DNA from: a virus
Lineage: Duplodnaviria; Caudoviricetes
Strand: one strand, 5' to 3'
Virus record (IMG/VR): IMGVR_UViG_3300028840_002990
Span: 1 to 60,180 of that record
DNA: 60,180 bases
The position numbers and the translations under genes are program-made. The notes beneath the pieces are model-generated. The model was not told the origin of the DNA, searched no databases, and was given only the letters and a program-made list of their open reading frames with translations. Shown here one piece after another: positions 659 through 57,636 of the stretch (positions are counted from its first letter, which is position 1; every line of letters begins with the position of its first letter).

Positions 659-749
659 TGGATGAAATAACCCAAAGAAACAACTTTATGAGGATTTTTG
701 TCTTGCCTGATAATTATCCAGAAGGTTTTTTGTTTGGCGGCGCTCCTTT

Positions 750-772
750 GCCGCTAACGCAAACCGTTAGGT
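750..772 (+). mobile_element. attC right-half remnant
   Basis: CCGCTAACGCAAACCGTTAGGT; CTAACGCAAACCGTTAG is identical to the right end of attC B3 (59228-59244). Confidence 0.75.
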
Positions 773-5152: not shown

Positions 5153-5173
5153 CCTATTTCTAATGAAACATTC

Positions 5174-5233
5174 TTGACAAATAAGCAGTTATGCACTATC
5201 CTTACGGCATCAAAACCATCCAAAACTTAGGAG
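5174..5233 (+). promoter_or_regulatory. Sigma70-type promoter with conserved leader
   Basis: TTGACA-17-TATCCT; AAACCATCCA 5213-5222; TAGGAG 5228-5233. Confidence 0.7.
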
Positions 5234-5242
5234 AAACAAAAA

Positions 5243-7329: not shown

Positions 7330-7981
7330 GCCTCCCGCGAAAAAGGAAGAAAACGAATCCCTGTACTATGTGGAAATCCCCGCAGATGTACGGGATTCGT
7401 TCGTAAAACTAGGGAAGCGAAAATTATCAATTGTTGCCTTTGGTATCAAGAGGGCAAGTCAATTTCAACATCACCCAAACAACCCAAAAAACCATCCTGA
7501 ATTTCAACAAAGGGTTGTAGAGGGTTCCTTGAATTCGTTGGGCTGGATTGATACCCCTATCGAGAATCGTACTACTGGCAACTTGGTGGATGGTCATGAG
7601 CGGGTTTGGAATGCCTTGAAACATGACGACTCTCCTGTGCCTTACTTTCAAGTTGATTTGACAAAAGACGAAGAGGCCCAGGCTCTTTTATCCATTGACC
7701 CGATAGCGGCAATGGCTGAAACAGATCAAGAGCAAGTTGATACTCTTTTGAAGCAAGTCGCAGTTGACGACCCGGATTTGATGATATTCATGGAAAGTTT
7801 GGGAACGGGGAACGGGGGGGGAGATATGGCTAGAGGCTTTGAGCAAAAAGAAGAATTGAAGCCTTTCAAGATGGTCAGGGTCTTGATTAGTTTCCCGATT
7901 GACTCGGCGGTTTTCGCCTCGGAGTTGATAGACCAACTGCAAGAGGTAGAAGGGATTGAAATTGATTATGGGGCTAATTAG
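7307..7981 (+). CDS. ParB/Srx-like N-terminal domain protein
   Basis: HPNNPKNH..SL...GW..P..N..TG.LVDGHER. Confidence 0.75.
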   Translation: MTQKTKSKPPAKKEENESLYYVEIPADVRDSFVKLGKRKLSIVAFGIKRASQFQHHPNNPKNHPEFQQRVVEGSLNSLGWIDTPIENRTTGNLVDGHERVWNALKHDDSPVPYFQVDLTKDEEAQALLSIDPIAAMAETDQEQVDTLLKQVAVDDPDLMIFMESLGTGNGGGDMARGFEQKEELKPFKMVRVLISFPIDSAVFASELIDQLQEVEGIEIDYGAN

Positions 7982-8522
7982 AAAGCAACTAAAAAAAACG
8001 GATAATGCTCATTTGCTTGATAAAGTGTACATTCGGAGCAAGCACTTACCAGAAGCCCCGGTTGTATTGGATTGTTTTGCAGGCGAGGGGGCGATCTGGC
8101 AGCGGGTAAAGGAGGAAAACCCGGATAAGAAAATCATCACCTTATCCATAGAGAAGATCAAAGAAAAAGGCGGCTTTCACTTAGTTGGGGACAATACCCG
8201 CTTTCTATCCGCTCTTGATTTATCGGTTTACAATGTGATTGACCTTGACTCTTATAGTATCCCCTATGACCAATTGAAAATCTTGTTTGACCGGGAGTAC
8301 AAGGGAATTGTTTTTTTTACTTTTATTCAAGCGGGGGTTGGTGAATTGCCTCACAAGATGCTTTTGGAAATTGGGTTTAGCAAGGATATTTTATCTAAGG
8401 CTAGGATTTTATGTATGCGTAGAGGCTGGCAATATTTCTTGTCTTATCTGTCTCTACATGGGGTTTCGGAAGTCACTTATATAAACCACCATCGCAAATA
8501 CTATGGGTATTTTGTCATGTAA
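7968..8522 (+). CDS. SAM-dependent methyltransferase-like protein
   Basis: VLDCFAGEG motif I; VIDLDSY motif IV-like. Confidence 0.65.
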   Translation: MGLIRKQLKKTDNAHLLDKVYIRSKHLPEAPVVLDCFAGEGAIWQRVKEENPDKKIITLSIEKIKEKGGFHLVGDNTRFLSALDLSVYNVIDLDSYSIPYDQLKILFDREYKGIVFFTFIQAGVGELPHKMLLEIGFSKDILSKARILCMRRGWQYFLSYLSLHGVSEVTYINHHRKYYGYFVM

Positions 8523-8527
8523 TTTAC

Positions 8528-8590
8528 TTGACAGATAAGGGGAAATAGAGTAAAATCCTTATATACAAAAACCATCTAATCAATAGGAGA
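8528..8590 (+). promoter_or_regulatory. Sigma70-type promoter with conserved leader
   Basis: TTGACA-17-TAAAAT; AAACCATCTA; TAGGAG. Confidence 0.75.
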
Positions 8591-8594
8591 AAGA

Positions 8595-8828
8595 ATGAAA
8601 TTACAACTTTTTGGTAAGATTTTCCACTTGAATGTTTTAGTCAAAGCGAGGGTTGAAAAAGCCCCTACTGACCATCCCTATATTGTAGGAAATTTGAGAA
8701 CCGTTGAGACTCTAACTAACAGATGGGAAATTGTTGAGGACGATAATAGGAAACGTTACCTATTTCATGCCAAGTGCGATGTTATAGCAGAGGATGGTAA
8801 ATGTATTCTCTGCGGCGAAGTTAGATAA
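8595..8828 (+). CDS. Hypothetical protein
   Basis: 77 aa ORF after promoter and RBS. Confidence 0.7.
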   Translation: MKLQLFGKIFHLNVLVKARVEKAPTDHPYIVGNLRTVETLTNRWEIVEDDNRKRYLFHAKCDVIAEDGKCILCGEVR

Positions 8829-8855
8829 CCATCCAATCAATAGGAGAAATTGAGA

Positions 8856-9335
8856 ATGAAAAGCTATGAGTTGTATTATCTTCAAAATGTCCGAAGTGCA
8901 AAGAGTGATCTTTGCAATCCCCGCATAAGTTTCAATTCCGGTTATTGGGATGCGAAAAGCGACCTAAAAAATGAACGCGAAATCAGGGACGTTTCAGATC
9001 ATTTCAATCCTTATTACGCGGCTGGATACGAGGCGGGGCAAGGCAGGCTTGCAAGCAACCAATCCAGTGAGATTGACTTTGCTATGTTTTGCAAGGGTTT
9101 ATCCGGTTCAGACTATGAGACTACTGCGAAAGCAATTCTTGAGTCTCTTATTCGAGGTCGTGAATATCTTTTCTCAAAAAAGCGCGACCGCTCCCAATTC
9201 ACTGACCATGATTGGAATGATATGATTTCCAGATATGACCGGGAGTTACCCGCTCAAAACCCTGAGCAATTCTGTATAAAGCATAGTGTTTTGAATCAAT
9301 TCGGTTTGCTCAACTATACGTTTGAGGGAAGATAA
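8856..9335 (+). CDS. Hypothetical protein
   Basis: Preceded by an AACCATCCAATCAATAGGAG leader copy. Confidence 0.7.
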   Translation: MKSYELYYLQNVRSAKSDLCNPRISFNSGYWDAKSDLKNEREIRDVSDHFNPYYAAGYEAGQGRLASNQSSEIDFAMFCKGLSGSDYETTAKAILESLIRGREYLFSKKRDRSQFTDHDWNDMISRYDRELPAQNPEQFCIKHSVLNQFGLLNYTFEGR

Positions 9336-9336
9336 T

Positions 9337-10254
9337 ATGCCTCAAGATCAAATTCAAAAAATCCCCTTTGACCAAATCTACCCCGGCAATAATGACCGGA
9401 CGGTATTTGATGAAGATGCTTTGAGTGAGTTGGCAAATTCAATCAAAGAGAATGGGCTTATTCAACCAATCACGGTTCGGTTGTTTGCTCCTGACCCCGG
9501 CGCGGTTTTCGGTGGTGATAGATTTGGGGAAGCGGCCCAATACCAGATTGTAGCCGGGGAGCGTAGGTTTCGAGCCTTGCGGATTTTGGAGGTTGAGGAA
9601 ATCCCCTGCATTGTAAAGGAACTGACCGACTCCGAGGCCTCGGCAATCATGTTATCCGAGAATGTTTCGCGTGACGATCTTGACCCGATAGATGAAGCTA
9701 ACGCATACCATCACAGGATTTCCAATCTAGGTTGGACTGTAAAAGAATGTGCTGAAAAAGCCGGGGTAAGTGACATCCGGGTTCAATTCCGCTTGAAACT
9801 TTTACATTTGCGGGATGACGTTCAAGACCTTGTTCGTTCTGGCAATCTTCAAATGGGTTATGCTCGGATACTGGCAGATGCGAAGTTGGATACGAATCGT
9901 CAAATGTTGGCGATTTCCAATCTTCAAAAGAATCCCCGTCCTACTACTGGATGGTTCAGGAAACTTGTCAATGAGTACGCGGAGCAACAGAACCAAGCTA
10001 AGATGTTTGAGGATGATTTCTTGGTTTGCCAACATGCCCCAATCGAGGCCTTGAATTTTGATACCCCTCCCTCCCCGGCTGTTGATAATCCTGAGATCAA
10101 AGGGGAAACTCCGGAAGATACCATTTTGCAACAAATTGAGTATTGGAAAGATGCCAGCGAAGGGTGGGAGAAATTGGGCAAGACGTTCAAACAAAAGGAA
10201 TGTAACGCGGCGGTATCCGCTTTACAATATGCCTTTAGTTCAATTTATGGATAG
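9337..10254 (+). CDS. ParB/RepB/Spo0J family protein
   Basis: LANSIKENGLIQPITVR..YQIVAGERRFRA..ENVSRDDL.PIDEA plus HTH. Confidence 0.9.
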   Translation: MPQDQIQKIPFDQIYPGNNDRTVFDEDALSELANSIKENGLIQPITVRLFAPDPGAVFGGDRFGEAAQYQIVAGERRFRALRILEVEEIPCIVKELTDSEASAIMLSENVSRDDLDPIDEANAYHHRISNLGWTVKECAEKAGVSDIRVQFRLKLLHLRDDVQDLVRSGNLQMGYARILADAKLDTNRQMLAISNLQKNPRPTTGWFRKLVNEYAEQQNQAKMFEDDFLVCQHAPIEALNFDTPPSPAVDNPEIKGETPEDTILQQIEYWKDASEGWEKLGKTFKQKECNAAVSALQYAFSSIYG

Positions 10255-12582: not shown

Positions 12583-13035
12583 ATGGGCAGACCAACCAAA
12601 CTAACAGATGACACAATACAAAAACTTGAAACGACAATTGCCGCCGGGAATTACTATGAGGCGGCTTGTCGCTTTGCTGGAATTAGTTATACCCTTTTCA
12701 GAGAATGGATAAAAGCGGGGCAAGAGGTCAGGGATGGAAAGCGGAAAAGAACACAAAAGAATCTAAAATTTCTTGAGTTTCTTGAGGTAATGGAGAGGGC
12801 AGGGGCTAAAGCTGAAATTAGGATGGTTGCTAACTGGCAGATGCACGTCCCGACTAACTGGCAGGCGGCGCGGGATTTCTTAGAAAGGCGATACCCTGAA
12901 AGGTGGGGAAAGAAAAGCAGAGTAGAAAGTATTGAAAAATATATTGATTTATCTAAACTGTCAGATGATCAACTGGAAAGATTGTCAAGGGGGGAGGATG
13001 TAATTGATGTCCTTACAAACCCAAGTTCAAGCTGA
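12583..13035 (+). CDS. terS: Terminase small subunit
   Basis: MGRPTKLT HTH; WQAA..FLERRYPERWG; immediately upstream of TerL. Confidence 0.85.
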   Translation: MGRPTKLTDDTIQKLETTIAAGNYYEAACRFAGISYTLFREWIKAGQEVRDGKRKRTQKNLKFLEFLEVMERAGAKAEIRMVANWQMHVPTNWQAARDFLERRYPERWGKKSRVESIEKYIDLSKLSDDQLERLSRGEDVIDVLTNPSSS

Positions 13036-14518
13036 ATTAGAACTACGGCGTAGGGCGCAAAGCGGGGAAATAAAAAAATCAAAATACAAAGAATTTCAGG
13101 AAAAATACCGAAATGATTTAGCGGGGTTTGCAAACGATTGTATATCGTGGCGCGAAAAAGAATATCCAACAGATTACCAGTTAGAAGGAATGCGGCGGCT
13201 AGTAAAGTACAAGCGTTTTTCATTGCGTGGCCCTCATGGTTTGGGGAAAACCATGTTTGCCGCAATTGCTGTTTTATGGTTTGCTCTAACTCGTGATGGG
13301 GAAGATTGGAAAATTCCTACACTTGCCTCGGCCTGGAGGCAGGTATCAAAATTTCTTTGGCCTGAAATAAGGAAATGGTCAAGGCGGTTGAAGTGGGGCG
13401 TTATTGGTCGCAACCCGTTCAACGAGAATAGAGAATTGCTTACACTGAGTTTGAAGTTGTCAACTGGTGAAGCCTTTGCAATGGCAAGCAATGATGAGTC
13501 TTTGATTGAGGGGGCACATGCGGACAATATACTATATTTGTTCGATGAATCGAAATCAATACCAGATGCAACATGGGATGCCGCAGAAGGGGCGATGTCT
13601 ACAACCGGGGAGTGCTATTGGTTGGCAGTATCAACGCCCGGTGAACCGATTGGGAGATTCTTTGACATTCATTCTAAAAAGGGCGGGTATGAGGATTGGG
13701 ATGCCCTTAAAGTCACACTAGAAATGGCAATCAAAGCGGGGCGCATAGATAGGGATTGGGCTAAAAATCGGGCAAGGCAATGGGGAAAAGATTCGGCGGT
13801 ATATATCAATCGAGTCAAGGGAGACTTTGCGGAAAGCGATGAGGATAGTGTTATCTCGTTGGCCTGGATTGAACGTTCAAACGAGCGATGGTTAGCAAGG
13901 CAAGAGGCAAACGATTTTGGGGATGTTACAGGCTTGGGGGTGGATGTAGGACGAGGCGGAGACCCGTCTGTTATCTGCCTACAATGTGAAGATGCAATAA
14001 AAGAATTCCGCAAAATACAGGTAAAAAATACAATGCACGTTACCGGATTAGTTATTGGTTTGCTGAAAAACCATCATAAATCAAAGGCAAGTATAGATGT
14101 GATCGGAATAGGGGCGGGAGTCGTTGACAGATGCAGGGAAGTTATAAACGAATTGAGAAACGTAATATTTCCAAACCCGAATGATAGGATTATTGCTTTC
14201 AATGCCGCAGAGAAAACAGACTTAAAAGATAGTTCAGGGGAATTGGGCTTTGTGGATTCTAGGTCGGCTGGATGGTGGAATCTTCGTGAGAAGTTGCAGA
14301 ATGATGAGGTTGATTTACCCCCGGAAGATGAATTGACCGGGGAGTTAGTTTCTCCTAAATGGGTGGTACAATCAGGAGGAAAAATAAAAGTTGAAAGCAA
14401 GAAAGATATAAAGAAACGCTTAGGCCGAAGTACCAACTATGCAGATACGGTCATTCAGGTTTACATGCCTCCCCCCGTTCAAAAAATGGCTGGTGCATTC
14501 GGTAGGAGAAAAAGGTAA
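13007..14518 (+). CDS. terL: Terminase large subunit
   Basis: Walker A GPHGLGKT, Walker B YLFDES, STP, nuclease GVDVGRGGD, RSTNYAD. Confidence 0.93.
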   Translation: MSLQTQVQAELELRRRAQSGEIKKSKYKEFQEKYRNDLAGFANDCISWREKEYPTDYQLEGMRRLVKYKRFSLRGPHGLGKTMFAAIAVLWFALTRDGEDWKIPTLASAWRQVSKFLWPEIRKWSRRLKWGVIGRNPFNENRELLTLSLKLSTGEAFAMASNDESLIEGAHADNILYLFDESKSIPDATWDAAEGAMSTTGECYWLAVSTPGEPIGRFFDIHSKKGGYEDWDALKVTLEMAIKAGRIDRDWAKNRARQWGKDSAVYINRVKGDFAESDEDSVISLAWIERSNERWLARQEANDFGDVTGLGVDVGRGGDPSVICLQCEDAIKEFRKIQVKNTMHVTGLVIGLLKNHHKSKASIDVIGIGAGVVDRCREVINELRNVIFPNPNDRIIAFNAAEKTDLKDSSGELGFVDSRSAGWWNLREKLQNDEVDLPPEDELTGELVSPKWVVQSGGKIKVESKKDIKKRLGRSTNYADTVIQVYMPPPVQKMAGAFGRRKR

Positions 14519-16758
14519 TGACTGAAAAACCCACTCCCCCCCGAAAAGGCACAAGAGCAGATTTGAAATTGAGATTGAATCGGGCAGAACAAACCATACA
14601 GTTTTTGGCGAATTCAACCCTGACCCGCAGAGCCGCTTATGCGGCCTCTCTAGGAAAACAGTTTGACGGTGATCGAGATTTATATGCCGTTTTTGGATAT
14701 AAAATATCCCCTGATTTTCAAGACTTCTTGCTTGCCTATGAGCGCGAAGGGCTCGCAGCTAGAGTCGCAGACGCAAAGCCAAATGCAACATGGAGCAAGC
14801 ACCCAATCCTTTATGTTGGTGGCGAGGCTCCAAGCGAAGAAAATCCGGGGGAACTGCAAAAGAAGTTTGACGAATTTGCTAACGAATACGACCTCTACGC
14901 AAAACTGAAAGAGCTTGATAGAGCCTGCGCGATTAGCCGCTTTGGTTTGATGTTCCTGGGTTTACCCGGCGACCCTAGAGAGCCAGTAGAAAACGTCAGA
15001 GAGGGAGATTTAGCCTTTATCACTGTACACGATGAGGGAGATGGGGAAATAGATGAGGGGAGCATTATTCAAGACACAGAAAACCCCCGCTTTGGCCTGC
15101 CTGAGTATTATTACATCATTGTTAGCGAAACCAATCAGGAAAAGAAACGAGTCCATCATTCCCGCGTAATCCATTACAAGCGAGGCAAGCAAAGAACTGG
15201 GTACGGGCGCGTGTACGGTGTTCCTGATCTGAAAAATATTTTCAACCGATTCTATGATCTTGAAAAAGTGGTAGGCGGTGGGAGCGAGGCATTTTGGTTG
15301 TTAGTGCGAAAAGGTCTTGCATTGATGGCAAGGGATGGAATGAATTTACCCTCAGAGGGAACAGACGCCTATGAAGTTTTAGAGGATGAGGTAGAGGAAT
15401 ACGAGCATCAATTATCCAGAATTATGAAATTGGTCGGCCTGGATATTCAGGAATTGGGAAGCGACCCGGTTTCTAGTCGAGATCAATTCGATGTGTTGAT
15501 TGAATATATTGCAGGGTCAGAGGAAATCCCGCAGAGACTTCTTTTAGGGTCTGAGCGGGGAGAACTGGCAAGTTCACAAGATCAAGCAAATTGGTTTGGT
15601 AACATTGAAGAAAGGCGAAATAACGAGGCCGAGCCTTATATTTTGCGGCCTGTTCTGGATAAGCTGGATGAATTGGGTCTTTTCGATTTACCAGATGAAT
15701 ATAAAGTTTTCTGGCCTCCATTGTTTACGCTGACAGAACCGGAGGAGGTAGAGGTTGCTAGTACGGTTGCACAGACTATTTATACAATCACAGGCGGTAT
15801 GCCTGAGTTGGCTATTCCGCTTGAGGAATTCATGAAACTGCTACCGGGTAAATGGTCATATGCGATGGATAAAGAGCAGATCAAAAAGATTGAGGAAGCA
15901 AAGCGGAAACCGGACGAAGCTAACCAAAAGGAAGATGAAAAAACAAAGGTTGACATTTCTGATTTGCTCTCCAAGTTGCCACAAGGGGAGGAAACAAAAC
16001 AGAATGCCCGGGCAATTATGAGCCGCCTTATCGAGGGGGTAAGCGGGTCAATCAAGGGCGATTTAGTGGAGAACTTCGGGACACTGGACGCTTACCAGAA
16101 TCCTATGGTTTGGCACAATGCAAATGGAACGGGCGAGTATGCAACCATGATTGCATTCATGATACCCGAAGTCATCCGCCAAGAGTTGAAAGCAAAATAT
16201 CCCTGGATACAAGATGACGTGTTAGACGAAATGCACATGACTCTTGTGTACCTGGGTGACATTCGCACATTATCAAGAGCTAGAATTTTCGAGGCGGTTG
16301 CTGAGTTTGCGAGTACGGTACAACCGATCAAAACCACTATGCAGGGACTCGCCCGGTTCGTTTCTGAAATGGAAAAAGACCCGATTGTCGCAACTTATGA
16401 CAGTCCACAAAATGAAATCGTTATGCTGCGGGAACAGTTAGCGGCTATACTTCGCACGATGGGAATCCCATACCATGATAATCATGGGTTTATCCCCCAT
16501 ACGACATTTGCATACATCCCTAAAAACGAGTCTATGCCTGATGACTCTTTTGAGCGGGTAGAGATCAATTTCAATATGGTTTCGGTGGTGATTGGTCAAG
16601 AGCAATATGATTTCGATTTAGGTAGATACCCTGACAATTTGCCTGAGATCATGCCTCCTCCCCCTCCACAAAAGGTACAACATCCAATAGAGGATTCAGG
16701 TCTTGACCCATACAATGAGCGGGGTAATTTTGACCCGGCAAATGAGGAGACTCATTGA
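14518..16758 (+). CDS. Portal protein (DUF1073-type) fused to a C-terminal 2H phosphoesterase
   Basis: Follows TerL; IPQRLLLGSERGELASSQD; HMTL and PHTTF 2H motifs. Confidence 0.85.
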   Translation: MTEKPTPPRKGTRADLKLRLNRAEQTIQFLANSTLTRRAAYAASLGKQFDGDRDLYAVFGYKISPDFQDFLLAYEREGLAARVADAKPNATWSKHPILYVGGEAPSEENPGELQKKFDEFANEYDLYAKLKELDRACAISRFGLMFLGLPGDPREPVENVREGDLAFITVHDEGDGEIDEGSIIQDTENPRFGLPEYYYIIVSETNQEKKRVHHSRVIHYKRGKQRTGYGRVYGVPDLKNIFNRFYDLEKVVGGGSEAFWLLVRKGLALMARDGMNLPSEGTDAYEVLEDEVEEYEHQLSRIMKLVGLDIQELGSDPVSSRDQFDVLIEYIAGSEEIPQRLLLGSERGELASSQDQANWFGNIEERRNNEAEPYILRPVLDKLDELGLFDLPDEYKVFWPPLFTLTEPEEVEVASTVAQTIYTITGGMPELAIPLEEFMKLLPGKWSYAMDKEQIKKIEEAKRKPDEANQKEDEKTKVDISDLLSKLPQGEETKQNARAIMSRLIEGVSGSIKGDLVENFGTLDAYQNPMVWHNANGTGEYATMIAFMIPEVIRQELKAKYPWIQDDVLDEMHMTLVYLGDIRTLSRARIFEAVAEFASTVQPIKTTMQGLARFVSEMEKDPIVATYDSPQNEIVMLREQLAAILRTMGIPYHDNHGFIPHTTFAYIPKNESMPDDSFERVEINFNMVSVVIGQEQYDFDLGRYPDNLPEIMPPPPPQKVQHPIEDSGLDPYNERGNFDPANEETH

Positions 16759-17210: not shown

Positions 17211-19820
17211 ATGACTTTCCCTACCCCCCTGCCTGAATTGCCCGTTCTCCTCCCTCCCCGTCCATACCGTGACGGGGGAGAGCCTTTCTTTGCTTTCACA
17301 GACAAAGAGACTCAGGAATTCTTGGAAGACAATTCAGACATCCAAAATAGTATTGACCTATGGAATAGAAAATCCCGCCTGGTTGGATACCTTGAGGCTG
17401 AGTCAATTGATGTTATTCAATTCCACTATGGCCCCGGCCCCCATCCCGGTACTGGTACGAGTCAAGATGTACATGGAGGGGATGGGGTAAAGGCTGAACC
17501 AAGAGGAAAGTATAAACATCCAATTCTAAAAGATGATGAACCTTTGAGTATTGCAAAAATTTGGGAGTCTTTTCAATGGCTTGAAAAGCAAAGACAGGAG
17601 GAGTTAGAAGCGGAATTGGAAAGGGAGCAAGGCATTGATAAAGAGGCAAGAGAGGAACGAATAGAGGAATTATCTGATGAATATGCAAAAGTTTTAGCTG
17701 ATGAATATGAATCATTTGCATTTGAGCATTGGAATTCTCTGACCGAAGAACAACAAGAGGCAATCAGGGAATATCAAAATGGGGAGTATGGTGATATAAA
17801 CGAATATCTTAGGGAGGGTGTCTATTTAGAAAATGAACATTATGTTGATCTTATTGCTGATTCTGCTACTCCATCCCCTCAAGATATAATGCTTTATAGG
17901 GGCATGGAAACCATGAGGTATGAAGATTTAGAGGCGGGGGACATTATTACAGATGACGGTTTTTTTTCATCCTCTGTTCACCAATCGGTTGCTTATTCTT
18001 TCATAAAGAATGCAGATAAAGGGGAACAAGAGGTTGCTTTTATTATTTTGGTAGATGAAGGGTTTCCGATTATCCCGGCTGATAGTAAAGACTATCCTAG
18101 TGAGGATGAAGTTATACTATTACCCGGTACAAGTTTTCATGTAGTGGATGTTTTCGAGGATGAATTTTTCTACAGTGACGATATTGATAAAGTTGTTTAT
18201 TTGAAAGCATTGACTCCAAGCGAAGCCCAAAACGGACTTGATAAGGGTTGGGAACTTTTACCAGAACCAAAACTAATACCAAAACCAGAACCAACCCCTG
18301 ATTTGCAACCTGCTTTGTTTTCAAAAGAACCAATCCCGATTCCAATTCTGGAAAGATGGGATGAAAATTTTTATTCCGAGGGCATAAGGGTTTACAGGCG
18401 GCAAAAGGTTTCCCAACATCATTATGGCCCCGGCCCCCATCCCGGTACTGGTACGAGTCAAGATGTGCATGGAGGGGATGGGGAGGAAAGAACTTACTCA
18501 GAAGTTGAAAAATATATGTATGAGGGTTTTGCAAAGAGGCATTGGGAAACCCTTACCCCTAGACAAAAACAGGTGATCAAAGCCTACGGTGATGATTACT
18601 ATGAATATTATAATGGGTATGCAAGAGGCCAAATTACAGCCACAGATTACAGTGAACAGGTTTCTGAAATAAATTCTGCTAGTATGCCTGCTCCATACGA
18701 TATGAAGGTGTACCGGGGAACTGAAAGTTTCCGATTCAACGATCTTGAAAGTGGTGATATATTTCATGATGCTGGATTTTTCTCTACTTCAATCCATAAA
18801 GATATTGCTGCAGATTTTGCCGATGTTCCATCAAAGGAAAAAGATCAAGTTGTTTTTGAAGTTCTTATTCCACATGCATTTCCTATTATCCCCTACGATA
18901 GCACAGACTTTGAACCAGAGGATGAAATCTTTTTTCCCGCTGGCACTTATTTTGAGGTCAAATCATCTGAGGATGACGTTTATTTTTCTTATGCTGGCAA
19001 TGTGAAACTTATTCAACTTGAGGCTATATACCCATCACAAGCAAGGGCAAAACAGAATGTAGAGAAAAGTAAAGTGCCTGAAAAATTGATTCCTGTTCCA
19101 ATTCTTGAGCGGTGGGCAACCGATGATTTTGATGGGGTTGGGATAACGATTATAAAGAAAGAAAAGAAAGAAAAGAAAATTTCCCAACATGCCCGGAAAC
19201 TTGTAGAGGTTTATTTCGATTTTCCAACAGGGGTTTATAGGTACATTGTTTCAGGCCGAAAAGTACCTGACCATCGTTTGCATTTAGGGAATGCCAGAGT
19301 CGCAAAGTCTCAACAAGGGGCAATGAAAGAGCTTACTCGGCAATTGGTAAACGGCGAGATCAATCAAGAGATTTGGTATAAGGAAATGCGACAAATGATG
19401 AAAGATCAATACCGGGCGGCTTGGCTTGCCAGTATTGGAGGCAGGGAGAACTATACCCGCTCCGAGATTTCAAAATTTGGTTGGGCTGTACGCCCTCAAT
19501 ACCGCTGGCTTGACAATTTTCTTGCTGAGTTGCAATCAGGAAAACAACCCTTGAATGCTTTTGCTATCATGCGATCTGGCATGTACGCGAGGGCGGGGAA
19601 TGCGATCTACCAGAACAATAGACTTAGGATAGCAATCGAAGCAGGGATGAAAGAGGCGAGGAGAATTCTAGGGGTTACGGAACATCACTGTCATGATACG
19701 TTGACCAAACCTGGGTGTATTGAATTAGCGGCTGAGGGATGGATTCCTATAATGCAAGCTGTACCAATCGGGGATGCAAGTTGTTATTCAATGTGTTTGT
19801 GTAGATGGGAGTTTAGATAA
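17211..19820 (+). CDS. Minor head (MuF-like) protein with two VIP2-type ADP-ribosyltransferase domains
   Basis: Two R-S-ExE sets (LYRG/FFSSS/SEDEV and VYRG/FFSTS/PEDEI); C-terminal HC..C..C...C.C; lies after the portal. Confidence 0.8.
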   Translation: MTFPTPLPELPVLLPPRPYRDGGEPFFAFTDKETQEFLEDNSDIQNSIDLWNRKSRLVGYLEAESIDVIQFHYGPGPHPGTGTSQDVHGGDGVKAEPRGKYKHPILKDDEPLSIAKIWESFQWLEKQRQEELEAELEREQGIDKEAREERIEELSDEYAKVLADEYESFAFEHWNSLTEEQQEAIREYQNGEYGDINEYLREGVYLENEHYVDLIADSATPSPQDIMLYRGMETMRYEDLEAGDIITDDGFFSSSVHQSVAYSFIKNADKGEQEVAFIILVDEGFPIIPADSKDYPSEDEVILLPGTSFHVVDVFEDEFFYSDDIDKVVYLKALTPSEAQNGLDKGWELLPEPKLIPKPEPTPDLQPALFSKEPIPIPILERWDENFYSEGIRVYRRQKVSQHHYGPGPHPGTGTSQDVHGGDGEERTYSEVEKYMYEGFAKRHWETLTPRQKQVIKAYGDDYYEYYNGYARGQITATDYSEQVSEINSASMPAPYDMKVYRGTESFRFNDLESGDIFHDAGFFSTSIHKDIAADFADVPSKEKDQVVFEVLIPHAFPIIPYDSTDFEPEDEIFFPAGTYFEVKSSEDDVYFSYAGNVKLIQLEAIYPSQARAKQNVEKSKVPEKLIPVPILERWATDDFDGVGITIIKKEKKEKKISQHARKLVEVYFDFPTGVYRYIVSGRKVPDHRLHLGNARVAKSQQGAMKELTRQLVNGEINQEIWYKEMRQMMKDQYRAAWLASIGGRENYTRSEISKFGWAVRPQYRWLDNFLAELQSGKQPLNAFAIMRSGMYARAGNAIYQNNRLRIAIEAGMKEARRILGVTEHHCHDTLTKPGCIELAAEGWIPIMQAVPIGDASCYSMCLCRWEFR
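17424..18483 (+). repeat. Two 64 bp near-identical copies encoding HYGPGPHPGTGTSQDVHGGDG
   Basis: 17424-17487 and 18420-18483; third diverged copy at 23895-23951. Confidence 0.9.
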
Positions 19821-20094: not shown

Positions 20095-20123
20095 TTGACA
20101 CATTTACAAATGTACATTACAAT
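20095..20123 (+). promoter_or_regulatory. Sigma70-type promoter driving cassette array A
   Basis: TTGACA-17-TACAAT; overlaps the palindrome AATGTACATT (20109-20118). Confidence 0.8.
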
Positions 20124-20153: not shown

Positions 20154-20360
20154 ATGGGTGATTTCAGACCAAAATTAAATTCTCATGAAGATATTTTCTT
20201 AGCAATTCAAGAGGAATTGAATAAGAATGCTGTTACCTCATTGAATCTTACAACTATTGTAAAGATTTGTGGAGAACGGGCTTTTTTATCTCTTTTCCCT
20301 GACAGGAAAAATGAGTTGTTGGGTTTACAGCGTCAACGATATGAGAAAATTGATTTTTAA
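20154..20360 (+). CDS. Small hypothetical protein ending at attI-like site A
   Basis: TAGGAG RBS; stop codon overlaps the AATGTACATT palindrome. Confidence 0.7.
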   Translation: MGDFRPKLNSHEDIFLAIQEELNKNAVTSLNLTTIVKICGERAFLSLFPDRKNELLGLQRQRYEKIDF

Positions 20361-20389
20361 TGTACATTCCGCTCAAACACTAGTTAGCC
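20359..20389 (+). mobile_element. attI-like site A
   Basis: AATGTACATTCCGCTCAAACACTAG|TTAGCC; 25 of 27 bases through GTT match 58249-58275; heads the array. Confidence 0.72.
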
Positions 20390-20410
20390 GCCACTTGAAG
20401 GAATAGTCAC

Positions 20411-20635
20411 ATGGCATATAAAAAAGGTAATCACTGTAACAATAATTGCGCCCACTTTTTCGGCGAAGATGTAACTATCTATAATCCGTATCATGGCGGC
20501 AATCCTGGCTCAACAGATTATGAGCAATATCAAATGTATTGTTGCGCCGAAGTTGCCCATGGTGAGCGTATCTATAAAGTCCGTTATGCTTGCCCTATCT
20601 ATCAGGCAGCTAACAAAGCATGGAGCGGACGGTAG
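20411..20635 (+). CDS. Cys-rich hypothetical protein, cassette A1 cargo
   Basis: AAGGA RBS; reads into the attC (ANKAWSGR). Confidence 0.75.
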   Translation: MAYKKGNHCNNNCAHFFGEDVTIYNPYHGGNPGSTDYEQYQMYCCAEVAHGERIYKVRYACPIYQAANKAWSGR

Positions 20636-20693
20636 AAATGTTACCTGAAATCCTGACAGCTTTATCGTCCGCCGCTCATGCAGGCCGTTAGGC
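20608..20693 (+). mobile_element. attC site A1 (86 bp)
   Basis: AGCTAAC..GCATGGAGCGG / CCGCTCATGC (one extrahelical base)..GTTAGGC. Confidence 0.9.
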
Positions 20694-20708
20694 GCTATCT
20701 TGCAAAGG

Positions 20709-21032
20709 ATGAAAATGATTACAGAAAAAGAACTCGATGCAATCGCTTGGCGTGCTGGTCGTGGTTGTCATTTTGAAAAAACGTTTGTTGGCCCAAATGG
20801 GTACACACAGAAAGTGTGCGAAGAAGATGTGCCTGCGCTTATCAGAGAATTGCGAATGGTGAGAGAATTTGTCAAGGCAAATATTGAGCTTGCAAATCTC
20901 AACACTACTTTGATTGAGTTTGTGTCAGAAGTCAATTACTCTCCATACAATGATAGTGATTGTCTTTCGCTTTTAGAAAGTTTGCGTTCACGAGCTGCGA
21001 CAATCCTGAGAGAGATTGAAGCGCCTAAGTGA
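20709..21032 (+). CDS. Hypothetical protein, cassette A2 cargo
   Basis: Begins after GTTAGGCGCT and ends over the remnant AGCGCCTAAG (21020-21029). Confidence 0.75.
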   Translation: MKMITEKELDAIAWRAGRGCHFEKTFVGPNGYTQKVCEEDVPALIRELRMVREFVKANIELANLNTTLIEFVSEVNYSPYNDSDCLSLLESLRSRAATILREIEAPK

Positions 21033-21125
21033 GGGGTTCATGTATTATGATATTCTGAAAATGTGCGGGGAAGAGGTTGAGGCTTGGTCAAAAGAGGCAC
21101 ATGAATTGATTACAGGGAAAACGGG

Positions 21126-21956
21126 ATGAATTTATTGCTGAAACAAAACGTTCAATGGAAACGTTTACAGAAAACATTTGAAAAAATCTTATATGCCCTT
21201 GTTCTAATCGGTTTGTTTTTTGTATCCATAATGCAAAGGGAAAATAATTCAGTTGATCTTCGGATACTACTAGAGTCGGGCAATGCCGCAATCAACGGAA
21301 TAAACCCATACAGGGAATTACCGTTCTACTCCCCCGCTTGGTTTCTTCTCCTGCTTTCCCCTTTGTCATTACTTCCCTTTGATTTTATTCATGCCCTATG
21401 GACAATTTGCACCCTCGCGGCGTGGGTTTTCATCCTTCATAAGTTGGAAATATCAGTAATTGATTCCGCTCTTTTTATGCTCAACCCTTTTATGTGGTTT
21501 GGGATGTCACTAGGAAATTATGATTGGCTTGTGCTGTTGGGTTTGTTTCTTCCCATGAGCCGGGGAATATGGCTGTTGCTTCTCAAGCCGCAAATTGTTT
21601 TTGGAGCTTTCCTTTTATGGTTGAGATATGTAAAACTCAAGTATGCAATCAAGGTTTTCTTTTTCCCCGCTCTAATTATTTTGATTTGTTTGGGGGTTGG
21701 GTTGTACCGTTCTCCCGATCTAAAAGAAATGATATGGAATCAATCATTAGGGCTATGGGGAATCCCTGTTGGGTTGATCATGATGTATTTTGCTTTCAAG
21801 AGGAATGATAGTATTTTGGCTCTCGGAGCATCCCCGTTTCTTTCTCCCTATGTTGGTATCCAATCCTGGGCAATCCCCTTCTTGCTCCTGACAAGAGATA
21901 GGCGGTTGTTGATCATCGGATTGATTTTGTCGTGGGCATTTATTTTTGTGAGGTGA
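21126..21956 (+). CDS. GT-C fold (GT87/DUF2029-like) polytopic membrane glycosyltransferase
   Basis: G.NPY..FYSPAW..LL.PL..LP, GNYD, LLKPQ; many TM helices. Confidence 0.7.
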   Translation: MNLLLKQNVQWKRLQKTFEKILYALVLIGLFFVSIMQRENNSVDLRILLESGNAAINGINPYRELPFYSPAWFLLLLSPLSLLPFDFIHALWTICTLAAWVFILHKLEISVIDSALFMLNPFMWFGMSLGNYDWLVLLGLFLPMSRGIWLLLLKPQIVFGAFLLWLRYVKLKYAIKVFFFPALIILICLGVGLYRSPDLKEMIWNQSLGLWGIPVGLIMMYFAFKRNDSILALGASPFLSPYVGIQSWAIPFLLLTRDRRLLIIGLILSWAFIFVR

Positions 21957-21960
21957 ACAG

Positions 21961-22119
21961 ATGCGAAAATACATATCAAACATATTTGGTGGATTGACAA
22001 TGATTGCCGGGTTTGCAATAATTATATCTGAGTATGGACTTGTACTAACATTTGGCATAGCATTTATTATTTTTGGTATTTATTTTTTGATGGAGAGTAA
22101 TGATGCAAATAAAAACTAG
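21961..22119 (+). CDS. 52 aa two-TM membrane protein
   Basis: GAGGTG RBS; hydrophobic translation. Confidence 0.5.
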   Translation: MRKYISNIFGGLTMIAGFAIIISEYGLVLTFGIAFIIFGIYFLMESNDANKN

Positions 22120-22303
22120 ACACAGCGAAATTGTAATTGATATAAAAACAAAAAAACCGTTTTTTGAATTTTCAAAAGAAGAACATGCTATTTATTCCGA
22201 ATTGGTTAGTGAAATTTGTGAATACCTTGATGGTATTTTTACAAGAGAAAATTACGGACTATTTTTGCAAGATCAAAATAAGGATTTGCGAGACGACCAA
22301 TGA
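22100..22303 (+). CDS. Hypothetical protein
   Basis: 67 aa ORF, GGAG RBS. Confidence 0.6.
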   Translation: MMQIKTRHSEIVIDIKTKKPFFEFSKEEHAIYSELVSEICEYLDGIFTRENYGLFLQDQNKDLRDDQ

Positions 22304-22333
22304 TTATTTCAATTTTACGAGGTGAGGTGAAGG

Positions 22334-22573
22334 ATGGAAACTGAAACTATTCTGGCAGTATTACTAGGTTGTATGATAGGAATATCTATTTGTGGCATTT
22401 TATCTAAAATCGAAAATCCCACTTTAGACAAACGAAAGCAAGAATTGGGATTAGGGAAAAAGTTTGAATACAAAGAAACTTGCCCGACCTGTAACGGTTG
22501 TGGTAGGCATTTATATGATGGAACAAAAAAACACGAACGGTGTCATACTTGCAAGGGGATAGGCAAATTGTAA
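22334..22573 (+). CDS. TM-anchored protein with DnaJ-type Zn finger
   Basis: N-terminal TM; CPTCNGCG and CHTCKGIG. Confidence 0.65.
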   Translation: METETILAVLLGCMIGISICGILSKIENPTLDKRKQELGLGKKFEYKETCPTCNGCGRHLYDGTKKHERCHTCKGIGKL

Positions 22574-22575
22574 TC

Positions 22576-22800
22576 ATGATTTCAGAATCAAGAAAAATAG
22601 AACTGGAACTAAGGAATGAGGAAATCTACCAAAAGCACTTGGATAAGGTTTCTAATTCTGATTTATCAAAAGAATATGAGCTAGACCCAAAAACTATTCA
22701 GGCAATTATTACTCAGGAAAAGAAAAGAGCAACGAGGCGAAAACCCCGAAACCTGATGTGTAATATCGGTTTGGATTATGTGCAAATGAGGCAGGCATGA
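22576..22800 (+). CDS. Mor-like HTH transcription regulator
   Basis: RNEEIY..S..DLSKEYEL..KTIQAII; just upstream of the head genes. Confidence 0.55.
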   Translation: MISESRKIELELRNEEIYQKHLDKVSNSDLSKEYELDPKTIQAIITQEKKRATRRKPRNLMCNIGLDYVQMRQA

Positions 22801-22893
22801 TCAATCTAAGAAAATACGTGTCTGAGTTCTTTTCTAAGAAAAATAAGGAATTATTTGGTCGGGGGACTCGCGTTTCTGTGCTATAATGAGTAT

Positions 22894-22973
22894 ACTTATA
22901 ACCTGCCCTCCCACTCCCGGCATGGTTATCATCCTTTCAACAATCCCCTTGCGGCGAACAAGGGGATTGTGTT
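22894..22973 (+). ncRNA. Candidate small RNA with CUCCCACUCCC loop
   Basis: Extended -10 TGcTATAAT (22879-22887); hairpin ATAACCTGCC/GGCATGGTTAT; 12 bp terminator-like stem. Confidence 0.5.
22940..22973. terminator. Intrinsic terminator-like hairpin
   Basis: ACAATCCCCTTG-CGGCGAA-CAAGGGGATTGT. Confidence 0.7.
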
Positions 22974-22978
22974 ATCCC

Positions 22979-23007
22979 TTGCAGAGAGTCTTATTTTGAG
23001 ATAAACT
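22979..23007 (+). promoter_or_regulatory. Putative head-operon promoter
   Basis: TTGCAG-17-TAAACT. Confidence 0.45.
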
Positions 23008-23063
23008 ATATAAGAATTTGAATATCTACTAAATGCGCTTGACGCTCATAGTAATAGAGTCAG

Positions 23064-24257
23064 GTGCATTTTATGTCAAATATTACTCCCCATTCTGTAC
23101 AAAACGCTCTACTCTCTTGGAGAGAGGAATCCATAGGCGACAAGTCTTATTTTGTCGTCAACGGAGTTCCCCTGGTTGAGGGTGTTCTAAATGGTCGGCT
23201 GGTTGAGGCAAAAGAGTTCGGTGCATTCGTCAAAGATTGGAACGGTGTACCTGTTGTTATGCGTCATCCAAAATCAAACGGGGGTTCGGCTCGTGTAATT
23301 TCTCCTGATGTCCCGGTGGTGGGACGTTTCTACAATGCAAAATTGGACGGGACTCGCCTCGTGGGTGAGTTCTGGCTTGACCCGGATATGTTGCAAGAGC
23401 AGGATGGTCAAGAGCTTATTTCCATGATCAAGGCCTCAAAGCCCGTAGAGATTTCTACGGGCTATTATGCTGAGTCCGTCCCTACAACTGGTCAGTGGAA
23501 TGGGAAAGATTATGGACTTGTTGACCAAAACTTACACCCTGACCATATTGCCCTTTTACCGGACGAAATCGGGGCTTGCTCGGTTGCCGATGGTTGCGGA
23601 TTGAATCGCAATCAGGAGGACGAAATGAAAGAGTTTGTTTGTCCCTATGCCGATTTGCTTCAACCCCAAACTGCTAAGAATGTTCAAAAAATACTTGGTG
23701 ATTTGGCAAATGATTTGGATGTTTCGATCCAGAACGTTGAAGGCCTTACAGGGGCGGCGGCTGATATGTGGGAGGAAGTATACAAAAATGCTTTGGAGCA
23801 ATACGAAGGGGATAAGGAACGGGCTTCAAAGGTGGCATGGGCGGCAATCAAAAAGAAGTACAAAAAAGAGGGTGATGATTGGGTGTTGAAAAATCATTAT
23901 GGCCCCGGCCCTCATGAGTCTGGAAGTTCTCAAGATGTACATGGTGGGGAGGGTGGAAAATCCCCTAGAAAATATAATGCTCATGAAAAAGCGGTACTTG
24001 AACGCGCAACCTATTTGGGGAAAAAAGCAGGGAAAGCGGTTAGGAGCAAAAGAAGGGATGAATATTTATCTTATGCAAGGTCTTTGGATTCTTTGCTTGA
24101 ATCTGTTCCTAAAGATTTTAGGAACGATGTTAGAAAAGCCTATGAAGAAAAATATAAATCTTATACCAACAATTTGAAAAACACAGAGTCGAAATTTGAC
24201 ATTCCGCAACATGAACTTGAAGGGCTTGCGAGTCTTGTTGCGTTTGTAGCAGAATGA
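23064..24257 (+). CDS. Prohead protease (DUF2213-type) with ChaB domain and HYGPGPH tag
   Basis: WNGVPVV.RHP, VEISTGY, PDHIALLP..GACS.ADGCG; ChaB-like W..VYK.A..QY..A.KVAWAAIKKKY. Confidence 0.82.
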   Translation: MHFMSNITPHSVQNALLSWREESIGDKSYFVVNGVPLVEGVLNGRLVEAKEFGAFVKDWNGVPVVMRHPKSNGGSARVISPDVPVVGRFYNAKLDGTRLVGEFWLDPDMLQEQDGQELISMIKASKPVEISTGYYAESVPTTGQWNGKDYGLVDQNLHPDHIALLPDEIGACSVADGCGLNRNQEDEMKEFVCPYADLLQPQTAKNVQKILGDLANDLDVSIQNVEGLTGAAADMWEEVYKNALEQYEGDKERASKVAWAAIKKKYKKEGDDWVLKNHYGPGPHESGSSQDVHGGEGGKSPRKYNAHEKAVLERATYLGKKAGKAVRSKRRDEYLSYARSLDSLLESVPKDFRNDVRKAYEEKYKSYTNNLKNTESKFDIPQHELEGLASLVAFVAE

Positions 24258-24904: not shown

Positions 24905-25393
24905 ATGATGGCTAAAACTAATCCTAGCATTATCTTGCTCAAGGGCAACCCCGTTTATGAGGAATTCCCGCTTGCCCCTATAAGCGCGTCAGGCGTGACT
25001 GCTATCACCCCCGGCATGTTGGTTGAGCTATCGGCTGGCGAGGTGCGCCCACACTCTACGCAAGGCGGGGATGTTACCCCCCGCATGTTTGCCGTAGAGG
25101 GGTTGAATGAAGATTCCAGTACTAAGACAATGGGCGACATTGATGTTGACTATGACGATGACAACGCGGCTGTGAAGTGTGCTGTTTGCGCTGGTGGTGA
25201 ATGGGTCTACGCCCTGTTGGGTGCAGGTCAATCCGTTGCGGCTGATGGCCTGCTTCAGTCTGCCAGTGATGGCTATTTGATGGCCTATTCTGCCGCCGCT
25301 CAGAAACCAGAACGAATCGTAGGGCAGGCAATCGCGGCTGTTGACAACTCCGCAGGCACTACCCCCGCCCGCGTGAAAGTGAGGGTTTTGTAA
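24905..25393 (+). CDS. Head decoration/cement protein
   Basis: ITPGMLV..L.SA.DG.L pattern; directly before the MCP. Confidence 0.7.
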   Translation: MMAKTNPSIILLKGNPVYEEFPLAPISASGVTAITPGMLVELSAGEVRPHSTQGGDVTPRMFAVEGLNEDSSTKTMGDIDVDYDDDNAAVKCAVCAGGEWVYALLGAGQSVAADGLLQSASDGYLMAYSAAAQKPERIVGQAIAAVDNSAGTTPARVKVRVL

Positions 25394-26367
25394 TGAATAA
25401 CCAACCCCTACACCCATCTGTAAAAGCCTGGTTCAACGAAGCCAGGACTCTGGATGTCAATGCAATGCGCCCTCATTTGGGTATGCACCACAACGCCCTG
25501 TTGCGCCGGGATGAATGGCTTGAAATTGACGCCGCTGTTCTGGATACGGTCAAAACTGGTTTGGTCGGTATCAATGACCTGATCAACGCTGGTCTAACTA
25601 AACCGCTTGGTGGTCTTGGTACTCTGCTCTCAGGGTATGAGACAGTAAGCGAAATGACAGAGGCCGATGTGTCAATGGACGGGGATGTACCGGGCGAAGA
25701 GGACGCCGTTGAATACGGTGAGAACTTCGTGCCAATCCCCATAATCCACAAGGATTTCAGGATTTCCATTCGCAAGTTGGAAGCGTCCCGCCGCATGGGT
25801 GAATCCTTAGACACAACCCAAGTACGCTCCGCGACTCGTGTCGTCCGTGAGAAGATGGAAGCGATGCTTTTCAACGGCCTGACCAAACAATTAGCCGGGT
25901 ATCCGATCTATGGATACACCAATCACCCTAACCGTATTACTGGTACGGCTGTGGGCGATTTCGGTACGGCTGGCAACGGCTACAAAACGATGGTCAAGGC
26001 TTTGGGTGCGCTTGGTGCGCTTGGCTTCAATGGCCCGTTCAATGTGTACCTTGCTCAAACGCAGTACAACGAACTTTTCAACCTGATTTCTACCAGCTAC
26101 GAACGGAATGAGTATCAGGTGATCGTGGACGGACTCCCGCAGATTTCATCCCTCAAACCATCGTTTGACCTGACTGCGGGTGAGCTTGTCTTTGTCCAGA
26201 TGGACAGGGAAACAATTGACTTGGCAATTGCTGAGGACGTTACCCCGGTTCAATGGGCAGAAATGGGCGGTTTCATTTCCAAGTTCCGCGTAATGACTGC
26301 ACTCGCTCCTCGAATCAAGAGCGACTTCAACAGCGTTGTCGGTGTACTACATTACACTGGTTGCTAG
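25393..26367 (+). CDS. Major capsid protein (HK97 fold, encapsulin/linocin-like)
   Basis: NALLRRDEW.EID..V; PIPIIHKDF.I..R.LEASR; YGYTNHPNR. Confidence 0.88.
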   Translation: MNNQPLHPSVKAWFNEARTLDVNAMRPHLGMHHNALLRRDEWLEIDAAVLDTVKTGLVGINDLINAGLTKPLGGLGTLLSGYETVSEMTEADVSMDGDVPGEEDAVEYGENFVPIPIIHKDFRISIRKLEASRRMGESLDTTQVRSATRVVREKMEAMLFNGLTKQLAGYPIYGYTNHPNRITGTAVGDFGTAGNGYKTMVKALGALGALGFNGPFNVYLAQTQYNELFNLISTSYERNEYQVIVDGLPQISSLKPSFDLTAGELVFVQMDRETIDLAIAEDVTPVQWAEMGGFISKFRVMTALAPRIKSDFNSVVGVLHYTGC

Positions 26368-53655: not shown

Positions 53656-53683
53656 TCTAATGGTATTATTACAATAAATACTC

Positions 53684-53744
53684 TTGACAAATAAAAGATA
53701 ATCCCTTATACTTCTCTTATCGAAACCATCCAATATAATAGGAG
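53684..53744 (+). promoter_or_regulatory. Sigma70-type promoter with conserved leader
   Basis: TTGACA-17-TATACT; AAACCATCCA; TAGGAG. Confidence 0.78.
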
Positions 53745-57590: not shown

Positions 57591-57619
57591 TTGACAAGCA
57601 ACGCAAGCCATGATAAGAT
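57591..57619 (+). promoter_or_regulatory. Sigma70-type promoter upstream of cassette array B
   Basis: TTGACA-17-TAAGAT; upstream TAATGAAAC(G/A)TTCTTGACAA shared with 5161-5180. Confidence 0.7.
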
Positions 57620-57636
57620 GGATGCAGATAGGAGAA

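Follow-up and report, generated by a model that had tools for sequence, protein, structure and literature searches.

Integrons are regarded as bacterial devices; to our knowledge, reports from phages are limited to passive attC clusters and a small number of complete integrons. Here we describe a short attI-type site that heads a small gene cassette at positions 20359-20693 of an integrase-less caudoviral genome (IMG/VR record IMGVR_UViG_3300028840_002990, of which the whole stretch of 60,180 nt, hereafter the window, was analysed). The closest published relatives come from Qi, Rajabal, Ghaly, Tetu and Gillings (2023, PMC9892861), whose search of 10,705 phage genomes from GenBank yielded 17 clusters of attC sites lacking an integrase (CALINs, for which two attC sites are the minimum) and five methyltransferase cassettes, and who reported that IntI1 recombined five of the six phage attC sites tested. 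The CALINs of that study resemble the arrays described here in carrying attC cassettes within integrase-less phages, virulent ones included, and in their methyltransferase cargo; they differ in that here a conserved, phage-specific attI heads the arrays and is linked to a small-protein gene, two platforms occur in one integrase-less genome, the attC sites are of a Chloroflexota type and the platform is widespread in IMG/VR. A CALIN in the Shewanella prophage M16-3 is likewise headed by its own attI with no adjacent integrase in phage DNA, but that prophage is inactive, also carries a complete integron with intI and has an attI of the ordinary host type, whereas the present genome has no intI anywhere and the left part of its attI-type site is phage-specific (PMC9892861). 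Finally, insertion at genomic secondary sites, described in a preprint (10.1101/2022.09.11.507474), also has IntI placing cassettes in trans outside a complete integron; its target sites are loosely defined, whereas the 26-nt site here is conserved across phages. A full-text literature search, which did not cover subscription journals, returned no description of an orphan phage-type attI, and the available excerpts of PMC13323075 hold nothing on phage integrons. Phage attC clusters are already published, and the orphan phage-type attI with its linked small protein appears to be new.

We propose, with a probability of roughly 0.7, that 20359-20693 is an integrase-less integron platform served in trans by a host IntI. 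It is not a complete integron, which would combine intI, attI and at least one attC, because intI is absent. A broader proposition, to which we would give somewhat less than even odds, is that Chloroflexota phages keep integrase-less platforms of their own, comprising a phage attI and often a dedicated dimeric small protein that binds DNA, and sometimes present twice, and parasitise host IntI to shuffle tiny phage-adapted genes such as those for methyltransferases and zinc-ribbon proteins.

The core of the platform is a 27-nt attI-type site on the plus strand at 20359-20385, in which a TGTACA palindrome is followed by an integrase-type core with a GTT end; its sequence places the likely crossover between 20383 and 20384. 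A sister site lies at 58249-58275, with a putative crossover at 58273|58274, at the head of a second array (array 1, below), and the 32 nt from 20359 to 20390, which the first-pass annotation had called attI-like with good reason, are 88% identical to 58249-58280. With a motif matrix derived from 12 phage sites, position 20367 scores 28.3 bits and position 58257 scores 29.8 bits, with the third-best position in the genome at 15.1 bits. All 12 sites head an array, end in GTT and have variable sequence beyond it: pairwise comparison gives 79.4% identity over the 26 nt preceding the crossover and 35.8% over the 26 nt after the TT, so that conservation stops at G|TT, the canonical crossover. One motif beyond it, TCTTGCAAA, was considered as a phage-specific feature and ruled out, as it occurs in 3 of 194 host and 3 of 184 viral sites.

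Although the site does not adjoin an intI gene (PF00589 and TIGR02249 have no match genome-wide), it is kin to attI sites that do. A 19-nt core matrix from the same 12 phage sites scores 14.6-18.4 bits exactly at the intI-adjoining attI in five of seven host loci, values reached by 0.2-0.3% of 5000 random 300-nt windows; the attI of the other two, L124 and L008, gave no match to it. One of the host loci, L129, agrees with window positions 20369-20385 at 15 of 17 positions. Beside the matching attI, the integrase is above cut-off in L125, L126 and L129, and the phage-like site also adjoins a 216-aa N-terminal IntI match in L111 (cut by the end of the locus) and an intI fragment in L022. These five sedentary chromosomal integrons of Chloroflexota share the attC family, the attI core and the cassette orientation with the phage arrays, but their arrays adjoin intI, their attC sites have a uniform length of ~130 nt (59-221 nt in the phages), and inverted partners of the TTATAC(A/G)G type stand in the place of TGTACA. 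That palindrome lies immediately 5' of the core in 11 of 22 viral matches of at least 14 bits and in none of 20 host matches. One viral contig, L249, has a core match at 988-1004 with a GTTATACC-type motif in front of it instead of TGTACA and may carry a host-type attI. In a separate search with a 17-nt core pattern, 12 of the 15 viral loci matched lacked the TGTACATT prefix and were discarded as chance occurrences.

These properties bear on the idea that a host IntI simply used chance GTT sites, with no dedicated or selected platform behind the insertions. IntI is reported to insert cassettes efficiently outside att sites (10.1101/2022.09.11.507474), the site upstream of one related viral cassette (in L226) is divergent, and another viral locus (L264) has attC sites with no attI-type site after its small gene. 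Chance targets, however, would not be expected to agree at 79% over 26 nt in 12 sites and to stop agreeing at the crossover, nor to share a core with true intI-adjoining attI sites, and the window exceeds 16 bits at its two array heads only. We therefore regard insertion at such secondary sites as unlikely.

Directly beyond the attI-type site lies cassette A1. The G|TT triplets at 20383|20384 and 20687|20688, read from the sequence, delimit it as exactly 20384-20687 (plus strand, 304 nt), the very coordinates given by the first-pass annotation. Its open reading frame (ORF, 20411-20635, plus strand) encodes a Cys-rich protein of 74 aa with no known family and extends through the 5' arm of the attC, which occupies 20608-20693 on the plus strand. 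The attC had been called intact, and so it is: it matches a covariance model of bacterial integron attC sites with 39.8 bits (E 1.1e-9, the E-values of this model being rough owing to a short calibration). The model was built from 60 bacterial sites, drawn at random from the 107 that passed a start/end filter among 159 sites paired by hidden Markov models (HMMs). With filters off, it finds five full-length matches in the window, all on the plus strand; the sixth-best has E 0.098, and 42 have E <= 10. Half-site HMMs built from 186 bacterial sites match on the plus strand only, their matches being confined to the two arrays, and at A1 they place the arms at 20607-20633 (E 0.015) and 20670-20695 (E 0.013). 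The ends of the site, AGCTAAC at 20608-20614 and GTTAGGC at 20687-20693, agree with the R'' (RYYYAAC) and R' (GTTRRRY) consensus (PMC9892861) at six and seven of seven positions, respectively. Simpler searches were less informative: an initial narrow pattern for short attC sites had no matches, a loose 3' pattern gave 18 matches with 15.6 expected, which is chance level, and short host sites paired by regular expression were too noisy to serve as a model basis, so HMM-paired sites were substituted.

Extrahelical bases of attC sites sit on the R''/L'' arm, and the hairpin formed by the bottom strand of 20605-20697 carries two single-base bulges on the 3' arm (modest energy z-score, -1.48). Across 63 phage attC sites, 94.2% of cells are paired versus 73.9% after shuffling, a value that none of 500 shuffles reached; 12 of 16 pairs show compensatory change, and sliding the partners drops pairing to 21-42%, although the alignment was fitted to the covariance model, which biases it towards pairing. 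Under the in-trans reading, the A1 attC would be recombinable by an integron integrase.

Might the repeats instead be regulatory hairpins of the phage, terminators or operators, or a non-autonomous mobile repeat with no relation to integrons? It is true that attC sites can be weak terminators, as PMC9892861 states, and that individual sites reach only modest energy z-scores (-1.5 to -2.4). Set against this are E-values of 1e-9 to 1e-16 to a model of bacterial attC sites, the compensatory covariation, and the arrangement of the sites, all of them on the same strand and each placed where a small ORF has its 3' end. We consider such an origin very improbable.

Further support comes from other viruses. 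Homologues of the 68-aa protein encoded immediately upstream of the site were found in 11 loci by protein similarity alone, with no reference to attC; three of these represent a single sequence present on three contigs, and the records of L002 and L184 account for two others. In 10 of the 11, an attI-type site stands right at the stop codon of the small-protein gene, the exception being L264, and all 11 have attC model matches downstream on the same strand, 1-13 each and 57 in total. Together with the matrix matches, these loci bring the phage-type attI to 18 other IMG/VR records, with differing cassettes. The exact site recurs in L001, L002 and L003, in each case followed by different small attC cassettes; L003 and L191, compared by eye, have a cassette start in common and different cassettes upstream of it. 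One complete genome, G408, has two platforms (L003 and L263). More broadly, among 59 viral loci fetched by their attC motif, 46 have at least one model match with E <= 1e-4, giving 179 matches. The small-protein gene, attI and a 13-attC array are identical in L265, L266 and L267 (also in L176 and L247), and this identical array is found on each of three contigs, of 21.8, 80.3 and 30.2 kb.

Another relative, L226, offers a comparison by position. It encodes a protein 56% identical to the 504-aa product of window ORF 13004-14518 and another that is 29% identical to the C-terminal part of the window's ADP-ribosyltransferase protein (below). Shortly downstream of the ADP-ribosyltransferase homologue lies one attC cassette (model match at 2294-2427), and five further attC sites lie upstream of the gene for the 504-aa homologue; the gene contents are all different. 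By this gene order, L226 has arrays at both positions equivalent to those of the window, although its record is partial and the site upstream of its cassette divergent.

These comparisons allowed us to weigh passive capture, in which fragments of a host array, including a piece of attI, were acquired once by illegitimate or homologous recombination and have since been inert. In its favour, off-target or illegitimate recombination has been suggested for phage attC clusters (PMC9892861), the window has no integrase, and gene A2 and the gene at 21126-21956, which follow A1, resemble decayed former cassettes. Yet the left part of the site, with TGTACA in none of the 20 host sites and in 11 of the 22 viral ones at the 14-bit threshold, is also missing from all 401 genomes of the presumed host class; in 10 of 11 loci the site is tied to a family of phage genes; the same site precedes different cassettes in different phages; and two sites each occur in the complete genomes of the window and G408, with arrays at two positions in L226. 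Passive capture is thus improbable in our view. The first-pass annotation had likewise suggested that the use of two sites speaks for selection rather than one accidental capture of a host array; this reading is partly supported, in that the 18 other records with their different cassettes and the doubled arrays of G408 and L226 argue against a single accident. It had also suggested looking in relatives for empty versus filled attI alleles, with the idea failing if the genes proved fixed. Alternative contents at the same site are indeed what the relatives show, so fixed genes are not the case; empty alleles did not turn up, as none of the 11 small-protein loci has an empty attI site.

The tight link between site and small-protein gene calls for attention to the protein itself. 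Its gene (20154-20360, plus strand) is a small ORF that encodes 68 aa and belongs to a conserved family, with a stop codon directly adjoining the attI-type site. Conserved features of the family are an FRPDL segment at the N-terminus, two helices and a basic tail, and the monomer model places helices at residues 8-24 and 32-47. As a homodimer, it was modelled with a score of 0.70, the best control reaching 0.02, with an interface formed by residues 1-12 and 36-44, contact agreement between runs of at least 92% and a partner predicted local distance difference test score (pLDDT) of at least 77. Of 30 solved same-chain pairs, 20 reached the mark applied, as did 1 of 23 single chains; these counts are only rough, coming from our own alignment, and a pass may reflect likeness to solved dimers. 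The protein is thus predicted to form a homodimer, its binding being supported rather than shown, and possibly adopts a ribbon-helix-helix fold, which fits the models but is unconfirmed by profile libraries; proteins of that class have a strand at the N-terminus and two helices and dimerise by intertwining. We speculate that it binds the TGTACA palindrome, which is also present in the promoter upstream: the ATGTACAT palindrome recurs at 20110-20117, within the spacer of a promoter-like site (TTGACA-17-TACAAT, 20095-20123, plus strand) that the first-pass annotation had singled out and that agrees with the consensus at 11 of 12 positions, consensus match being its only evidence. The region holds nine promoter-like sites with 9.7 expected, so that only the quality of this one counts.

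Such a linkage could also mean that an unrecognised phage recombinase, perhaps working with the small dimeric protein, moves the cassettes with no part for IntI. The linkage of small protein and site is tight, the TGTACA palindrome is phage-specific, and many proteins of the window have no family. However, the attC sites fit the bacterial integron model and retain its structure, the core of the attI-type site matches intI-adjoining attI, and no recombinase family was detected: the profiles for tyrosine recombinases (PF00589), integron integrases (TIGR02249) and serine recombinases (PF00239) gave zero matches in a six-frame search of the whole 60-kb genome. Moreover, full IntI homologues occur in other viral loci of the set, which indicates IntI as the enzyme of the system. 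Four loci (L230, L194, L152 and L245) encode full homologues, 41-49% identical to host IntI, and three (L175, L206 and L207) partial ones; the loci represent phages that carry complete integrons or else host DNA that was misclassified. The records of five relatives tested contain no IntI-type integrase; two of the five have ordinary tyrosine recombinases of 283-290 aa, and the complete record of L184 has none. A phage-autonomous system appears quite improbable.

Because the phage has no integrase, the insertion, excision and exchange of its cassettes would need catalysis in trans, and our preferred reading, a platform served by host IntI, can be put as follows. The phage would keep short double-stranded attI-type sites behind promoters, and an integron integrase would be supplied by the host or by a co-resident element, since some related viral contigs encode one. 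Phage replication could furnish single-stranded DNA in which the attC sites of circular cassettes fold, and the integrase would then join the folded attC to the phage site at G|TT. A1, which lacks a promoter, would have been inserted in this way at the G|TT of the attI-type site, and cassettes would be transcribed from the upstream phage promoter. Loss of an attC may fix some genes in place, perhaps including A2.

If this is correct, phages actively exploit a host enzyme in trans for gene exchange, which would create a path for genes to move among phages as well as between phage and host and would account for hot spots of tiny accessory genes between structural genes. The platforms would then be a phage-side counterpart of the stores of defence genes in bacterial integrons. 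They would also supply a defined, testable set of sites, together with an untapped pool of compact phage genes, some possibly acting against host defences.

Which host would supply the integrase? A search of one genome per prokaryote species with the attC 3' motif returned at least 120 loci; among the 120 matches listed, 76 are from Chloroflexota (mostly Anaerolineales), 11 from Pyrinomonadaceae/Blastocatellia and 27 from other taxa, with 6 lacking a name, as counted manually from the record titles. By our own arithmetic, chance alone would give a 16-mer a few hundred occurrences in the 596 Gb searched, and single matches therefore prove little; what counts are the multi-copy loci and the taxon bias. 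An integron integrase above the NCBI curated cut-off is present in three of the five attC-motif genomes tested. From these sequence comparisons, the host is most likely an Anaerolineae-type Chloroflexota bacterium.

Several points weigh against a platform served in trans. The host is proposed only from the type of the attC and attI sites. The full 25-nt phage site, with up to three mismatches allowed, is absent from 401 of 401 genomes in the class of G001, the presumed host class; its left part is accordingly phage-specific and may not be bound by IntI. Several large unassigned phage proteins, such as that encoded at 51413-52561 on the minus strand, could conceal an unrecognised recombinase. 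As for the 68-aa protein, it has no match in Pfam, PHROG or PDB, and its monomer model is of low confidence (pLDDT 63). The array at 20359 contains only one attC, which is below the two-attC minimum and keeps it from counting as a CALIN. The cassettes have the same guanine-plus-cytosine (GC) content (0.41-0.47) as the phage (0.436) and hence did not arrive recently from a GC-richer source; for the same reason, GC content was rejected as a cassette marker. For this phage itself, contigs, in which rare variants are invisible, revealed neither a recombination event nor an empty site or an alternative allele. A contig joint that runs from 20385 to 20607 with 496 letters between, considered as an alternative allele, turned out to be the paralogous array 1, and two further sequencing runs held nothing relevant.

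A last difficulty concerns the attC of A1, which is joined to two unrelated ORFs, something that is not a product of standard IntI chemistry. The 85 nt at 20607-20691 are 100% identical to 58772-58856 in array 1; the identical stretch is exactly the attC, fused to two unrelated ORFs whose ends lie within it in different frames. In standard exchange, whether attC x attC or attI x attC, the body of an attC stays with its ORF, which leaves this arrangement unexplained; gene conversion and strand-swapped recombination are possibilities. In Logan contigs from two runs, each possibly the source of the record, the 85-nt attC forms a separate piece at ~1.7x the depth of its flanks, as two copies predict. 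The first-pass annotation had called the array at 20359 a second and independent one; it is a second array, but with an identical 85-nt attC shared between them, the two are not fully independent.

Array 1 extends from 58.2 to 60.0 kb and on to 0.8 kb, since the genome is 60,036 bases long with a terminal repeat and the array annotated at 57591-60036 thus continues across the record ends into positions 1 to ~780; with five or six attC sites, it qualifies as a CALIN. It is preceded by a promoter-like sequence read at 57591-57619 (TTGACA-17-TAAGAT, plus strand) and a 218-aa ORF of no known family (57610-58266, plus strand), whose stop codon lies inside the attI-type site. Four cassettes follow on the plus strand: cassette 1 (58274-58542) with its attC at 58422-58548 (E 6e-11) and a 74-aa ORF that stops inside it, cassette 2 (58543-58852) with its attC at 58773-58858 (E 6.2e-9), cassette 3 (58853-59240) with its attC at 59157-59246 (E 1.8e-14), and cassette 4 (59241-60036) with its attC at 59912-60042 (E 1.1e-16) and a gene for an N6/N4 DNA methyltransferase (59256-60056; N6_N4_Mtase, E 6.5e-24). 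A long attC of 221 nt at 552-772 (plus strand; 36.1 bits, with default filters only) terminates the array, and an isolated attC 5' half-site lies at 379-421. The first-pass annotation held that the layout is the same at both places and that the platform was duplicated. What the two have in common is an attI-type site heading attC-bounded cassettes, four of them in array 1 with E <= 6.2e-9; the resident gene and the promoter are not duplicated, and the duplication is limited to the site of ~27-32 nt.

In cassette 1, the ORF 58308-58532 continues through the attC, as do those of L226 2294-2427 (minus strand), L184 6720-6853 and L001 11220-11344, and such read-through phage cassette ORFs have a zinc-ribbon-like CxxC...CxxC C-terminus coded in the variable middle of the hairpin.

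Beyond A1, gene A2 occupies 20688-21032 (plus strand), with an ORF at 20709-21032 but lacking an attC. Over the first ~55 residues, its product is 52% and 47% identical to those of ORFs in the viral loci L191 and L236, respectively. In L191, an intact attC starts where the homology stops (model match 317-441), and in L236 the homologue lies inside a cassette flanked by two attC sites. The first-pass annotation had read a remnant of an R'' site at 21020-21029, which did not hold up: no covariance-model match in 20694-23060 is better than E 3.3 and the half-site HMMs are silent there, leaving the remnant indistinguishable from chance, and the attC of the homologues starts at the equivalent of window position ~20870, not 21020. 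On sequence grounds A2 probably has a cassette origin, its attC having been lost or never having been present here. At 7340-7380 of L236, decay has left only a 5' stub of the attC that belonged to the A2-like gene, and the ORF is fused with sequence of the next cassette, a visible example of cassette fixation. A gene for a 276-aa membrane protein follows in the window (21126-21956, plus strand), here without an attC; the protein is 28% identical to the product of the first cassette after attI in the host-type integron L022, from Anaerolineales. Up to the protease, the interval thus has the appearance of a single live cassette with possible former cassettes behind it.

The record itself belongs to the class with direct terminal repeats and 100% completeness; in a self-comparison of the window, bases 1-144 are an exact repeat of 60037-60180, leaving a unique length of 60,036 bases. 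The record begins, at base 1, with the T that immediately follows the G|TT crossover in the attC at 59912-60042 (junction 60036-60037). That a contig should start at a cassette boundary by chance is unlikely, because there are only ~7 crossovers in 60 kb, and the start may reflect an assembly-graph branch at a polymorphic cassette junction.

The array at 20359 lies among head genes. The 504-aa ORF at 13004-14518 is presumed to encode the large terminase and is followed by a portal gene (14518-16755; Phage_portal_3, E 9.6e-30), whose product has a 2'-5' RNA ligase/LigT-like phosphoesterase domain at its C-terminus (residues ~566-680) and matches cultured phages at no more than 35% identity. The next gene (17211-19820) encodes an 869-aa protein with ADP-ribosyltransferase domains and occupies a MuF-type gene position, although a comparison with Pfam gave no MuF match. 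Downstream of the array lie genes for a DUF2213 protease with ChaB (23064-24257), through which no relatives were found, and an HK97-type capsid protein (25393-26364). In L001, a promoter, small ORF, attI and cassettes lie directly 3' of a Phage_min_cap2 gene, and this minor capsid protein 2 gene (7897-9990) contains an intein (Intein_splicing, E 2.3e-10).

Some minor features of the window deserve mention. A 381-aa minus-strand protein has no match in Pfam, PHROGs or Atlas. A leader motif, AACCATCCAnnnnnTAGGAGAnA, precedes early genes at 2107-2129, 5214-5236, 8570-8592 and 8827-8849, and a 58-nt promoter-like repeat containing TTGACAAATAA occurs at 5166-5223 and 53676-53733 with 71% identity. 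A stretch coding for the motif HYGPGPH..GT(G/S)SQDVHGG is found twice in the ADP-ribosyltransferase gene (17419-17491 and 18415-18487) and once in that of the protease-ChaB protein (23890-23959). The two copies in the former share 97% identity over 64 nt and lie 996 nt apart; the 869-aa protein is an internal duplication of an ADP-ribosyltransferase module, and the shared motif might be a processing or capsid-targeting signal.

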